A DNA stretch of 64,000 nucleotides from assembly GCA_041687695.1 (NCBI GenBank), contig JAWLBL010000004.1, positions 279,319 to 343,318 on the forward strand. Reading direction: 5' to 3'. Below, piece by piece: positions 60,064 to 64,000 of the stretch. Made by a program: the position numbers and the translations under genes. Under the pieces are notes generated by a model. That model worked only from the letters and a program-made list of their open reading frames with translations. It had not been told where the DNA came from and did not search any database. The stretch's first letter is position 1. Every line of letters begins with the position of its first letter. This stretch comes from Myxococcota bacterium (lineage in GTDB: Bacteria; Myxococcota_A; UBA9042; PHBI01; JAWLBL01).

Positions 60064-60966
60064 ATGCGGGTGATGGCGCTTTCGGTGTTGGCGCTGGTGC
60101 TTGGGACGGGCTGCAGCGACGGCTTCGGCGGGCTGCTCATCTCGAACGCGCGCGAGGTGCAGATCGGCGAGGGCGTCGACCAGCAGATCGAGGCCGAGTA
60201 CCCGATCGTCGACGCCGCGGACCCGGTCGCGCAGTGGGCGGTGCAGTTCATCTCGCCCCTGGTGCAGGGCTCCCGGCCCTTCCGCGACCCCGACCTCATC
60301 GGCGGCTACAAGATCGAGATCATCGCCGACGACGAGCTGGTCAACGCCTTCGCGGCGCCGGGCGGCTTCACCTACATCACGACGGGCCTGCTGCTCGCCG
60401 CCGACACCTGCGCCGAGATCGCTGGCGTCATGGGCCACGAGCTGGCCCACGTGACCGAGCGCCACGGCGTCAAGGACATCGAGGCGGCCTTCGCGGCCGA
60501 GCAGCTCGCCTCCTTCTTCCTCGACGAGGGCCTCGCCCGCGACGGCGCCGTCGCCATCTGGGCGCTCCTCCAGAACACCACCTTCAGCCAGGACGACGAG
60601 AGCGAGAGCGACCTCGTCGGCCTCCAGATCGCCTTCAACGCCGGCTACAACCCCCACGGCCTCGCGGACTTCTTCGCCAAGCTCGCGGCCCTCGAGGCCG
60701 CCTCGGGCACCTTCCTGCCCGAGTTCCTCTCCTCGCACCCCTCCAGCCAGTCCCGCGTCACCGACGTCCGCGCCGAGATCCAGCGCCGCTACGGCGACCA
60801 GGTGGTCCAGGACCAGTCACAGTCCTACGACTGCCTCGGCACGGGCCTCACCCTCGAGCAGGTCAAGGCCCACATCCAGGGCGGCAACATGGTCATCCGC
60901 CCCGGCACGGGCACGGGCGTGGTGCCGGGCGAGACGCCCGAAGGGGAGCAGCCGCGGGAGGGGTGA
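60064..60966 (+). CDS. M48 family metallopeptidase lipoprotein (BepA/LoiP-like)
   Basis: Lipobox LGTGC; NAFAAPGG, HELAH, E.ESD..G and SSHP motifs. Confidence 0.92.
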   Translation: MRVMALSVLALVLGTGCSDGFGGLLISNAREVQIGEGVDQQIEAEYPIVDAADPVAQWAVQFISPLVQGSRPFRDPDLIGGYKIEIIADDELVNAFAAPGGFTYITTGLLLAADTCAEIAGVMGHELAHVTERHGVKDIEAAFAAEQLASFFLDEGLARDGAVAIWALLQNTTFSQDDESESDLVGLQIAFNAGYNPHGLADFFAKLAALEAASGTFLPEFLSSHPSSQSRVTDVRAEIQRRYGDQVVQDQSQSYDCLGTGLTLEQVKAHIQGGNMVIRPGTGTGVVPGETPEGEQPREG

Positions 60967-61116
60967 GAGGGGTTGGGGAGAGGGGCTGGGGAGAGGGGAG
61001 AGGGTAGACCCGACCCGGCGTCGCCGACGCACCGCGAGAGGCGTGAGCCCCGCCGGACCGGGTCTGGAGCGTCAAGGGCTGGGGAGAGGGGCGAGGGTAG
61101 GAGCTGGGGAGAGGGC
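60962..61116 (+). repeat. Purine/G-rich tract with 4 copies of TGGGGAGAGGG
   Basis: Copies near 60974, 60987, 61080 and 61105, around a GC stem-loop (approx. 61006-61065). Confidence 0.7.
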
Positions 61117-61120
61117 AGGC

Positions 61121-61311
61121 GCGGTAGCCTCCGCTTCGGCCGGCCTCAAGGGCTTTGTCCCCCTTGGCCGGCCTGGTCGGCCGGCCAATTCCTCGCGGAC
61201 GACAAAGCCCTTGACCCCGGCCTACGCTGCGGCTGGGTGGCCAATATCGGCCCGGAAGGGGGCCTTCCGGGCCGCTTCGCGTCCCGGCGCGGGAGTGGGC
61301 GGCGGGTGCTG
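61121..61311 (+). ncRNA. Candidate structured RNA/ssDNA element, left copy
   Basis: Several stems, three of which covary relative to the right copy. Confidence 0.5.
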
Positions 61312-61399
61312 GGGGAGGCGGCGGGTCGGGGGGCCCGTGAGCCAGTCGCAGGTAGTCGCGAAGTCTGGCCACAGGACGGGATTTAAACGCTTGTGTAAT

Positions 61400-61638
61400 T
61401 AGTCGTCCCGGGCCGAAAGCGCGCAGGTCGCCGTTCCGGGGCGGAAGCAGGCAGGTCGTCGTCCCGGGGCGGAAGCAGGCAGGTCGTCGTCCCGGGGCGG
61501 AAGCAGGCAGGTCGTCGTCCCGGGGCGGAAGCGCGCAGGTCGTCGTCCCGGGGCGGAAGCGCGCGGATCGTTGTCCTGGGGCGAAAGCCGGTCGTCGTCC
61601 CGGGGCGGAAGCGGGCAGGTCGTCGTCCCCGGGCGGAC
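61400..61638 (+). repeat. Left tandem array, approx. 9 units (mostly 28 bp) of core GGTCGTCGTCCCGGGGCGGA
   Basis: Unit starts at 61426, 61454, 61482, 61510, 61538, 61566, 61590 and 61618, plus a partial unit at approx. 61400. Confidence 0.93.
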
Positions 61639-61857
61639 GTCGGGGCGAAAATCGACATCCGGTCTCGACGAGGATGCAAATAGTTGTTGACGGATTTCGG
61701 GGAGACGTTTTGGGCGATCCAGGGTCGGCTGGAGGGAGGGCCTGGGAGGCCCCTGCCAGGCTCTACAGCGCGCTGATCAGGGGTGAGGGTCGTCGGAAGT
61801 CGTCCGAGAGGCCTGAACGGCCGTCCTGGGGGTACTCAGAGGGGATGAGAACCCCCG

Positions 61858-61887
61858 TGCTATGCTGCAGGCCTCGATTGGGAGGGG
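61858..61887 (+). promoter_or_regulatory. Putative extended -10 promoter and RBS of the HNH gene
   Basis: TGCTATGCT (61858-61866); GGAGG at 61881, before the ATG at 61894. Confidence 0.4.
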
Positions 61888-61893
61888 TGCGGC

Positions 61894-63048
61894 ATGAGCA
61901 AGGGCTTGGAGTTGCTGGGGAAGTTGTCCGACGAGGGGCTGCTGGGGCGGGTCGGTGAGCTGGTCGATCTGGAGCGACGGACGACGGCCAACCTGGTCGT
62001 CCATCTGGCCGAGGTCGAGGCCAGGGAGCTTCACCTTCGCGACGGCAGCCCGTCGCTGTTCGAGTGGTGCCGGACGCGGTGGGGCTTTGGTGAGGACAAG
62101 GCCTACAACTACGTGAAGGCCGTCGGGTGGGTGCGGCGGTGGCCGCAGATGGGCGCCATGTTGGCCGATGGGCGGATCAGTTTGAGCGGGATGCGGGTCA
62201 TCGGGCCGCATCTGGGCGACGGGAACGTCGACGAGCGGCTGGCCGAGGCCGCCGGCAAGAGCAAGCGGGAGCTGGGCGAGCTGGTGGCCAGGTGGTCGCC
62301 GCGGCCGGATGTGCCGGCGCGGGTGTTCCGGTTGGCGCCGTCCCGGGGCGGAGCGCGTTCCGAGGCGCCGAAGCGGACCGCGTCGCCACAGGCCGAGACC
62401 GAGCTGACCCTGGAGCGCCCGAAGCCGCAGCATCGGGTCGAGCCGTTGTCGGAGGCGCGGTATCGCGTGCAGGTGACGGTCGGTGCGGGGGTGGCGGCGA
62501 AGCTCGAGGAGGCGATGGCGCTGGCGGGCCATCAGGTCGCGTCCGGGGACTATGAGACCTTGTTGGAGATGGCCCTGGACGTCTTCCTGGCCGCGAAGAA
62601 GAAGCAGCGCTTCGGAGTCGGGGCCAAGCGGCGAGTGAAGAAGGTCGTAGTGAAGGCGCCCGAGCCGGCCGAGAGCGTGGCCATGGCGGACCAGTTGGTC
62701 GAGGCCGCGGCGAGCGAGCCGGAGGCGGAGGTGACGGAACGCAGCCGGGCCATCCCGGCCGAGGTCAAGCGGGCCGTGGTCGAGCGGGACGGCCTGCGGT
62801 GCACCTACGAGGGCCCGGGAGGGCGGTGCACCGAGACGCGCCGGCTGGAGCTACATCACGAGGAGGCCTTCGCCAGGGGCGGCGCTCACTCGGTCGACAA
62901 CCTCCGGGTCGTCTGCCAGGCCCACAACCTGCTCGTCGCCCGCCAGGAGCTTGGGGCCCGGTTCGTCGCACGCAAAGTAGCCGAGCGGCGGGCGGGGGCC
63001 GTTCCGCCCCGGGACGAAAGCCCGCTCGGGCAAGCAGCTCGTGGGTGA
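61894..63048 (+). CDS. HNH endonuclease with DUF222-like N-terminal region
   Basis: N-terminal LSD..LL...ER..TA.L..HLAEVE.R.L...G..SLF.WC; C-terminal R.IPA.VKR.V.ERDG.RC...RC...LELHH...GG.....NL...C..HN. Confidence 0.88.
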   Translation: MSKGLELLGKLSDEGLLGRVGELVDLERRTTANLVVHLAEVEARELHLRDGSPSLFEWCRTRWGFGEDKAYNYVKAVGWVRRWPQMGAMLADGRISLSGMRVIGPHLGDGNVDERLAEAAGKSKRELGELVARWSPRPDVPARVFRLAPSRGGARSEAPKRTASPQAETELTLERPKPQHRVEPLSEARYRVQVTVGAGVAAKLEEAMALAGHQVASGDYETLLEMALDVFLAAKKKQRFGVGAKRRVKKVVVKAPEPAESVAMADQLVEAAASEPEAEVTERSRAIPAEVKRAVVERDGLRCTYEGPGGRCTETRRLELHHEEAFARGGAHSVDNLRVVCQAHNLLVARQELGARFVARKVAERRAGAVPPRDESPLGQAARG

Positions 63049-63050
63049 CC

Positions 63051-63463
63051 TCCGCCCCGGGACGACGACCTGCGCGCTTCCGCCCCGGGACGACGACCTG
63101 CGCGCTTCCGTCCCGGGACGACGACCTGCGCGCATCCGCCCCGGGACGACGACCTGCGCGCTTCCGCCCCGGGACGACGACCGGCTTCCGCCCCGGGACG
63201 ACGACCGGCGCGCTTCCGCCTCGGGACGACGACCGGCCTCCGCCCCGGGACGACGACCGGCTTTCGCCCGGGACGACGAACTGGGCTTCCGCCCCGGGAC
63301 GACGACCCGCTTCCGCCCCGGGACGACGACCTGCGCGCTTCCGCCCCGGGACGACGACCTGCGCGCTTCCGCCCCGGGACGACGACCTGGGCTCTCCGCC
63401 CCGGGACGACGACCTGGGCTCTCCGCCCCGGGACGACGACCTGGGCTCTCCGCCCCGGGGCGA
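63051..63463 (-). repeat. Right tandem array, approx. 15.5 units of the same 20-bp core, inverted
   Basis: TCCGCCCCGGGACGACGACC plus 4-8 bp linkers (TGCGCGCT, GGCT, TGGGCTC). Confidence 0.95.
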
Positions 63464-63549
63464 TTAATTGTTCGATCGTTAAATTACCTCCTGCTGCCAG
63501 CCTACGCGACCACGCCCGGCGGCTGGGATGCCCGACCACCCGCCCGCCT

Positions 63550-63739
63550 CAGCACCCGCCGCCCAGTGCCCGCGCCGGGACGCGAAGCGGCCCGGACGCC
63601 CCCGTCCGGGCCGATATCGGCCGCCCAGCCGCAGCGAAGGCCGGGGTCAAGGGCTTTCTCGTCCGCGAGGAATTGGCCGACCGCCAGGTCGGCCAAGGGG
63701 GAGAAAGCCCTTGAGGCCGGCCGAAGCGGAGGCTACCGC
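63550..63739 (-). ncRNA. Candidate structured RNA/ssDNA element, right copy
   Basis: Reverse complement of 61121-61311 with compensatory substitutions. Confidence 0.5.
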
Positions 63740-63752
63740 ATGGCACCTTCTT

Positions 63753-63860
63753 CACCCCCATCCCCACCCCCATCCCCACCCCCATCCCCACCCCCATCCC
63801 CACCCCCATCCCCACCCCCATCCCCACCCCCATCCCCATCCCCACCCCCGTCCCCACCCA
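63753..63860 (-). repeat. 12-bp G-rich minisatellite (GGGATGGGGGTG)n
   Basis: Seven perfect CACCCCCATCCC units at 63753-63836, then degenerate copies; the C-rich tract continues to the window end. Confidence 0.92.
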
Positions 63861-64000
63861 GCCCCCACCCCCCGTCCCCAACCGAGCCAAGCTCTCGGCC
63901 TCCCCCATCCCCACCCACCCCCCACACCCCAGCTCCCAACGAGCCACGCTCTCGGCCGACCCACCTCCCACCCCCACCCCCACCACCCACACCCCCGCTC

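Follow-up and report, generated by a model that had tools for sequence, protein, structure and literature searches.

The window analysed here is a stretch of 64,000 nucleotides from a Myxococcota bacterium, and positions 61121-63739, close to its right-hand end, form a single unit in which two arms of ~620 bp lie inverted to each other. Read inward, each arm has the same order: a 190-nt module, a spacer whose sole AT-rich box lies at its end, and an array of 28-bp units. The DNA between the arms holds one convincing open reading frame (ORF), 61894-63048, which encodes an HNH nuclease of 384 amino acids (aa). The features are as follows.

60957-61120 (+): G-rich flank outside the left module, made of short tandem repeats with unit GAGAGGGGCTGGG and relatives
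61121-61311 (+): left terminal module, with a conserved core from GTAGCC (61125) to about CGCGTCCCG (61287)
61126-61234 (+): long imperfect palindrome, from the alignment fold, pair counts and the ssDNA fold
61126-61129/61231-61234, 61131/61229, 61133-61134/61226-61227 and 61138-61143/61217-61222 (+): outer stem
61146-61159 with 61201-61214 (+): stem 1, which encloses stem 2
61164-61173 with 61179-61188 (+): stem 2, nested in stem 1
61185-61200 (+): junction sequence CCAATTCCTCGCGGAC, of which 61189-61200 is unpaired
61248-61274 (+): stem 3, a 12-bp hairpin with a GGG loop (columns 159-183: C-G n=21, A-U n=16)
61312-61401 (+): lineage-specific spacer, ending in an AT-rich box at ~61381-61401, GATTTAAACGCTTGTGTAATTA
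61402-61650 (+): left array, 8.6 units of 28 bp with core GTCGTCCCGGGGCGGAAG
61651-61893 (+): conserved gene-upstream region, with TTGACG at 61687-61692, a TGCTATGCT box and GGGAGG before the ATG
61894-63048 (+): HNH nuclease gene, 384 aa
63047-63465 (-): right array of 15.5 units (28 bp each), in the opposite orientation to the left array
63463-63549 (-): right AT-rich box and spacer
63550-63739 (-): right terminal module, which repeats the left module in inverted orientation (93% identity over 192 columns)
63740-64000 (-): right-hand tandem repeats, C-rich on the + strand with unit CACCCCCATCCC, and G-rich when read inward

The left G-rich flank overlaps the final codons of an M48 peptidase ORF (60064-60966), and the contig ends within the right-hand repeats (63740-64000). 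The AT-rich box at the end of the spacer is found again in other copies of the element. Immediately beyond the right module, an ATG at 63740 starts a proline-rich reading frame, MAPSSPPSPPPS..., which stays open across the C-rich repeats as far as the end of the contig; this frame probably arises from the repeats alone and is no gene.

A preliminary description of this DNA had proposed that three compensatory base-pair changes between the terminal copies mark a secondary structure under selection. The positions and bases that it named are correct throughout, and the three exchanges are real. Over 300-nt stretches, 61100-61400 (+) and the reverse complement of 63460-63760 match at 90% mean column identity, and within alignment columns 3-193, which cover roughly the initial 175 nt of the module, nine substitutions and two single-base indels separate the copies. 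Six of the nine substitutions fall in stems 1-3, where they amount to exactly three Watson-Crick-to-Watson-Crick swaps (from left to right copy, G61157-C61203 to C-G, G61171-C61181 to A-T and A61257-T61265 to C-G), and the other three lie at unpaired positions; one indel sits in a loop and the other at a loop-closing pair. Combinatorially, the chance that six random substitutions on the 72 stem positions would all pair up and restore complementarity is ~1.7e-6. Folded as single-stranded DNA (ssDNA), the + strand reaches -69.9 kcal/mol (z -6.3) and the - strand -70.1 kcal/mol (z -7.4), with 0 of 200 shuffles folding as well in either case. Two further pairing options overlap stem 3: the palindrome GGCCRATATCGGCC (within 61238-61252/61266-61290), which is perfect in the right copy, and CCGGGCCGC-loop-GCGTCCCGG, which is preferred by RNAalifold and has only invariant pairs, and is hence uninformative.

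The same genome (7.97 Mb in 63 contigs) carries 43 copies of the module at 78-100% identity. Covariation, the check that the preliminary description had put forward for a larger alignment, was assessed on the 37 full-length copies, four others being cut by contig ends and two, on contig C27, being divergent. With the outer stem and stems 1-3 as the structure tested, 95.9% of 1797 cells pair, and double changes occur at 15 of 49 pairs, in 53 cells; 0 of 500 shuffles reach any of the five measures used. The copies are related, so that cells are not independent events, but control structures in which the partners were slid by 1-3 columns preserve this relatedness and still fall far short, with double changes at 2-5 pairs and in 2-8 cells. 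Several pairs show three or four pair types; columns 22-103, for example, hold C-G in 29 copies, U-A in 4 and G-C in 3. Stems 1, 2 and 3 contribute 6, 3 and 3 double-change pairs, counts matched by 0 of 500 shuffles, and the compensatory upkeep claimed for each of them is thus supported.

The same cannot be said of a fourth stem (61216-61237), which had been proposed to hold a conserved G-T pair. It can be drawn in both copies of the window, but the family alignment gives it no backing, with 0 double changes and a break at columns 103-117 in 8 of the 37 copies. Positions 61217-61222 covary instead with 61138-61143 in the outer stem, which extends stem 1, and column 103 covaries there with column 22 (seven double changes). 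Because its bases covary in the outer stem, the G-T pair of the fourth stem is no evidence of strand. We also considered UNCG-type mini-hairpins at 61133-61140 and 61226-61233, in which the second loop base takes all four letters, and dropped them since their bases pair in the covarying outer stem. A GGGGGCGCAGCCCCC mini-hairpin is added beside stem 3, or replaces it, at C2:134152, C8:248582, C9:2196, C1:455179, C22:27751 and C26:96143.

The conserved part of the module extends beyond its paired bases. The 12 unpaired nucleotides of the junction (61189-61200) are invariant in 37/37 copies and missing from the divergent module on C27, while the hairpin loops vary; judged by this pattern of conservation, the junction is a candidate recognition or cleavage site. 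The order of side hairpin and junction is likewise identical in all 37 copies, so that no flip and flop orientations are seen.

The suggested association with the HNH gene is borne out across the genome. Of the 43 module copies, 26 lie within 1.8 kb of an HNH gene, and a repeat array follows in 40 of the 40 that could be tested, the contig end leaving no inward DNA in the other three. Each of these 40 has at least two CCCGGG-core sites in the 900 nt inward of it, and the module always lies outside the 28-bp array of CCCGGGG-core sites, which ranges from 2 to 31 units among copies. The site palindromes are nearly confined to these elements, with CCGCCCCGGGGCGG falling inside them in 32 of 33 cases. 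The HNH gene is present in 22 copies at 54-87% amino-acid identity to that of the window; a module lies 0.5-1.4 kb upstream of every one whose upstream side is assembled, and a second, inverted module lies downstream in 7 of the 22.

Eight copies (C1:145879, C1:454305, C2:110011, C2:186074, C3:115917, C4:119160, C12:106423 and C46:30477) stop right after the gene and lack the right arm, most of them at a single perfect palindrome CCGCCCCGGGGCGG at the stop. In a FastTree phylogeny they form one clade nested among two-ended copies, which implies a single loss of the right arm in a lineage that nevertheless went on to occupy eight loci; the element can thus do without a second module. Such a clade sits poorly with a classical two-ended transposon and fits a role oriented towards the gene, that of an RNA included. 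Conversely, inverted module pairs with sites between them and no gene occur at C7:201562-202478 (917 bp) and on C27 (~1 kb), and fit element ends that are used in trans. These derivatives are small, non-coding and bounded by inverted repeats, as MITEs are, whereas the window's element, with its 384-aa protein, does not belong to that category. Clusters of modules with short arrays, head to tail or inverted and with no HNH gene nearby, were observed at C3:293115-295048 (four modules) and C47:29729-30312 (two).

This linkage speaks against the module being an independent REP/REPIN-like repeat that is moved by a Y1 (RAYT/IS200-type) transposase of the host and merely serves HNH elements as a landing place. 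The genome does contain ten Y1_Tnp matches over the cut-off, and a solo palindrome stands at the empty site of a related element in genome G370 (see below), but no solitary module was found, the 40 testable copies all being followed by the element's sites in fixed order; no Y1 gene lies beside any module, and the module measures 170-190 nt against the 20-40 nt of a REP. We find this explanation hardly credible.

The sequence outside the modules has features of its own. Read inward, the outer 100 nt of 42 module flanks have a mean G content of 0.51 against 0.23 for C, and G minus C is at least 0.25 in 22 of the 42. The unit of the flanking tandem repeats differs at every copy, even between the two ends of one element. 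No target-site duplication was found at the flanks of five two-ended copies (the window, C6, C11, C22 and C33), where the G-rich flanks blur the outer end. Tandem duplications of 32-66 nt cross the outer boundary of the module in at least three copies (C2:186865, C9:2196 and C13:226171), and boundary-spanning duplications also occur at C13:389 and C33:12446; they leave partial copies of the module's first 28-45 nt in the flank, which suggests recurrent breakage or slippage at this point.

Conservation falls off sharply from the module to its surroundings. Over 136 pairs of 17 elements, mean identity is 0.873 for the module, 0.747 for the gene and 0.510 for the adjoining 80-nt spacer, and the module is more similar than the gene in 125 of the 136 pairs. 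The HNH genes are themselves under purifying selection (median dN/dS 0.39 and median dS 0.62 across 153 pairs of 18 intact genes). Within this multi-copy element, which has the HNH nuclease as its only gene, the module, presumably a part that acts in cis, thus lies furthest out and is the best conserved. Two deep clades of the protein have different array sites, with CCGCCCC/GGGACGAC hybrids in one and GTCGTCCC/GGGACGAC palindromes in the other. All lineages also share a conserved stretch of 270 nt ahead of the start codon (21 copies aligned), which is G-rich on the sense strand and contains the boxes AAATAGTTGTTGACGG, GCGCTGATCAGGG, GGCCTGAACGGCCGTCCAGGGG and TGCTATGCT; no consensus structure emerged for it from the 21 copies, the energies being weak at -16 on both strands.

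Module identity and gene identity are only weakly correlated (r 0.30), which could stem from gene conversion and not from selection. Indeed, quasi-palindrome correction by template switching is an established mutational route, and palindromes kept up by mutation, through hairpin-templated repair and gene conversion among the 43 copies with no involvement of the HNH protein, would agree with this weak tie and with stems that are nearly pure Watson-Crick and show few intermediates (G.T or A.C in 35 of 1797 cells). Templated correction, however, leaves the 12-nt junction, invariant in 37/37 copies, and the other conserved unpaired blocks unexplained, and conversion would need an abrupt limit at the border of the module, given the 0.51 identity of the adjoining 80 nt. 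Furthermore, every lineage keeps the module, the gene-less derivatives included. We consider purely mutational upkeep very unlikely.

The AlphaFold model of the HNH protein (mean pLDDT 83.4, pTM 0.71) predicts a helical N-terminal domain at residues 26-139, a β-hairpin followed by two helices at 181-240 and the HNH domain at about 285-355. Although a Foldseek search against the PDB gave nothing at E 0.001 or better, structural alignment with VIA-align places residues 26-139 closest to the DNA-binding domains of KorB, ParB and Spo0J (Z 7.1, 7.0, 6.4 and 6.2 over 91-98 residues). The predicted fold is suggestive of a KorB/ParB-like domain, with the qualification that a Z of ~7 is within reach of unrelated helical domains. 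In the same way, the HNH domain aligns with the HNH endonuclease of phage GVE2 (Z 7.7), McrA (Z 7.5) and the HNH domain of IscB (Z 6.8). Its match to the Pfam HNH family PF01844 (E 0.0028) is below the gathering score, and the zinc and catalytic Cys, His and Asn positions are invariant in 32 homologues. Identity with IscB was considered and rejected, the score against NF040563 being 30 bits against a cut-off of 175, over residues 285-355 alone, with RuvC absent. Pfam DUF222 gave no row in the protein at E up to 10. The HNH family is the sole family match of the ORFs that lie between the arms, and none of these ORFs matches an HUH/Rep tyrosine initiator.

A covariance model of the main hairpin had 34 matches in the genome studied here and none in the 106 further genomes sampled from the class, and a family-level DNA search for the module reached its own genome alone. 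The exact matches to CCAATTCCTCGCGGAC listed from genome and metagenome contigs were chance ones, and blastn placed the module in none of 235 loci compared, which is no measure of its absence elsewhere. The protein family is patchily distributed: using a profile of 32 homologues, 34 of 401 sampled genomes of the phylum have a match at E 1e-25 or better, a number that is a floor because a stricter filter was applied. Long flanking inverted repeats were seen at only one of the other genomes among 29 loci examined, G011, which belongs to the same order.

In another genus, the repeated unit is small. In genome G212 it consists of a palindrome ACTGCCCCCGGGGGCAGT, TTGACA, a leader, the gene and a palindrome again, and one locus (L126, C3:2413047-2419078) holds a 1.45-kb unit. 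The flanks of this locus lie 64 bp apart in the congeneric genome G370 (C31:387536-387600), with a solo palindrome AACTCTCCCCGGTGAGAGTT between them. This is an insertion/deletion polymorphism bounded by palindromes, so that the protein family is mobile in that genus, and the solo palindrome may be a target or a deletion scar.

The elements of G011 end in a different module, of 245 nt, present in 17 copies that make up both arms of eight elements and one arm of a ninth (loci L070-L086, for example L070:1495-1752); the two-ended elements are ~1.9 kb long, and the module is closed by an invariant stem of 15 bp. It covaries at 22 of 79 pairs, a level that 0 of 500 shuffles reach, and it is strongly strand-specific: the energies are -146 and -99 kcal/mol for the two strands, G.U outnumbers A.C by 122 to 6 cells, and all 17 of the 17 copies fold more stably on the inward strand. 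Rfam has no match for it. This module may be a structured RNA or a strand-specific ssDNA element, and could resemble the strand-specific single-strand origins that rolling-circle plasmids possess.

The window's module behaves differently. The preliminary description had read the G-T pair of the fourth stem as pointing to the inward-reading strand, but over all stems of the 37 copies there are 17 G.T cells against 18 A.C cells, the latter being G.T on the opposite strand, and neither strand is preferred. The consensus folds at -64 kcal/mol on the inward strand and at -78 on the outward strand, where the gain comes from one invariant 3-bp helix, and, of the 37 copies folded singly, 15 are more stable on the inward strand. 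Equal folding of both strands is what a cruciform, or a hairpin on either strand, predicts. Thus, of the earlier proposal of a structured non-coding RNA (ncRNA) or ssDNA hairpin, the structure is upheld by covariation, and on the nature of the molecule the evidence leans to DNA over RNA.

Should the module nevertheless encode a structured ncRNA, be it a scaffold, guide carrier, antisense or regulatory RNA that works with the HNH protein or controls it, then the covariation with variable loops and invariant unpaired stretches would be accounted for, as would the position of the module, which is always upstream of the gene and is kept in the clade without a right arm. The HNH domain is of the IscB/Cas9 type (Z 6.8 to IscB HNH), the variable sequence just outside the conserved module occupies what we take to be the position of IscB guides, and the G011 relative has a strand-specific, G.U-rich structure with 22 of 79 pairs covarying. 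On the other hand, wobble pairs and energies are free of strand bias, and the ancestral form carries the module inverted at both ends. The module lies ~570 nt upstream of the conserved TTGACG promoter-like box, and outside it, and a scan of the region for sigma-70-like promoters gave none. The protein has neither RuvC nor an evident RNA-binding domain, its N-terminal domain resembling DNA binders. Rfam is also without a match: at E up to 1, positions 60500-64000 gave no HEARO and only two chance microRNA rows (E 0.43 and 0.55), and four related loci gave only chance microRNA and CRISPR-repeat rows. We regard an RNA as unlikely. The narrower analogy to HEARO/omegaRNA drawn in the preliminary description is not supported, given the empty Rfam result, the 30 bits of the protein against the IscB cut-off of 175 from its HNH region alone, and its KorB/ParB-like N-terminal domain.

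We lean, tentatively, towards a structure that acts as DNA: quite possibly, if still short of probably, the module is a cruciform or hairpin DNA site used in cis and organised as nic and bind are in a rolling-circle origin. Several observations fit this reading, namely the equal foldability of both strands, the nearly pure Watson-Crick stems, the invariant unpaired stretch, the array of tandem, protein-sized sites that always accompanies it at ~90 bp, and a sole gene whose nuclease is predicted to bind DNA. The module would take the form of an extruded cruciform or, after duplex opening, of a hairpin on one strand or the other. The nuclease, loaded on the adjoining array of 28-bp sites through its KorB/ParB-like domain, would recognise or nick the extruded module, and so start the copying or moving of the element; in this origin-like layout, with nic ~90 bp from bind, an HNH enzyme would take the place of the HUH Rep. 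By analogy, a conserved nic and a co-diverging bind would match the origin logic set out in the excerpted account of PMC1851628. Binding of the arrays by the HNH protein and a cut within the module are what we infer from this arrangement. Counting against the DNA reading is the strand-specific module of G011, which looks RNA-like or like a strand-specific ssDNA.

Structured hairpin ends of mobile DNA are already known, and what is not in Rfam is the sequence family of this module, its branched fold, the iteron-like arrays and the HNH-only partner. A literature search over titles and the openings of abstracts found no description of an element that encodes an HNH protein and has hairpins at its ends. 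The known roles of HNH nucleases are those of homing enzymes or of components of RNA-guided effectors, and, to our knowledge, every prokaryotic transposition chemistry that has been well studied relies on an enzyme of the DDE/RNase H-like, HUH, serine, tyrosine or Cas1 kind. A bolder and rather doubtful proposition is that the element represents an undescribed class of bacterial mobile DNA with a KorB/ParB-like HNH nuclease as its sole enzyme. Its minimal form would be the gene between CCCCGGGG-core palindromes, as in G212, and in the genome studied here each end would have grown into a cruciform nic module with an iteron-like array. Copying would rely on nick-primed strand displacement, with no HUH, DDE, serine or tyrosine recombinase involved, and the G-rich minisatellites and junction duplications would be scars of nicking.

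What we have at hand is a multi-copy family, with ~22 gene copies in one genome, in which an HNH nuclease is the only protein and the structured ends change less quickly than the gene. Action of the nuclease on the module would amount to a new mode of DNA movement or copying, and the enzyme would be a new structure- or site-specific nickase with a modular DNA-binding domain; should the module be an RNA, it would be one that is associated with HNH yet has no relation to omega RNA. On either reading, the invariant 12-nt junction and the 28-bp sites are directly testable substrates.

Several known systems share parts of this layout. Like HEARO and the omega RNA of IscB, the module is a structured non-coding segment upstream of an IscB/Cas9-type HNH gene in a mobile element; unlike them, it stands at both ends, is not strand-specific, and comes with neither an Rfam match nor RuvC. 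With the ends of IS200/IS605 and with REP/REPIN-RAYT it has in common hairpins that would act as DNA in cis, covarying stems, conserved unpaired bases, the lack of a target-site duplication and gene-less derivatives, which in those systems are mobilised in trans. IS200/IS605 and REP/REPIN depend on a Y1 HUH transposase and one defined strand, with hairpins of 20-40 nt and ends that are not inverted, whereas the module shows no strand bias, spans 170-190 nt, has a branched fold and is paired with an HNH enzyme.

In the inverted terminal repeat (ITR) of the parvovirus AAV, a long palindrome encloses a smaller one, and a site-specific nuclease is encoded between the inverted copies. The window's element likewise has a palindrome within a palindrome and a nuclease gene between inverted copies; it differs in having no flip and flop (37/37 copies the same), in being integrated and bacterial, in lacking Rep and in carrying the extra arrays.

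The DUF222-HNH proteins of Actinobacteria offer another parallel, with multi-copy chromosomal repeats and a helical N-terminal domain joined to a C-terminal HNH. In the available portion of PMC10589994, REP13E12 of Mycobacterium tuberculosis, a DUF222-HNH repeat, is counted among repetitive or mobile sequences, and that portion of its description includes no hairpin module or arrays. The window's protein differs from this group in having no Pfam DUF222 match, the sole link being a weak atlas lead (23% of one cluster, at rank 30).

The closest likeness in layout is to rolling-circle origins. In the excerpted account of pMV158 (PMC1851628), the direct-repeat bind locus lies 84 bp from the hairpin, and the hairpin part is common to relatives whose repeats differ; according to the same excerpt, the repeat-bound initiator helps to extrude the hairpin, nicks its unpaired loop and can cut related nic loci. 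The window's element differs from such origins in its enzyme, which is an HNH and not an HUH/Rep tyrosine enzyme, and in being chromosomal, multi-copy, often with the whole unit present twice in inverted orientation, and furnished with far longer arrays (2-31 units). As in the double-strand origin of pMV158 and pT181 (nic with the IR-I hairpin, and the bind repeats), it presents an inverted repeat that is predicted to fold and could be extruded, together with a conserved unpaired sequence; and, as in pMV158, direct repeats tens of bases away (~90 bp) would load the initiator, with the hairpin shared among lineages and the repeats diverging.
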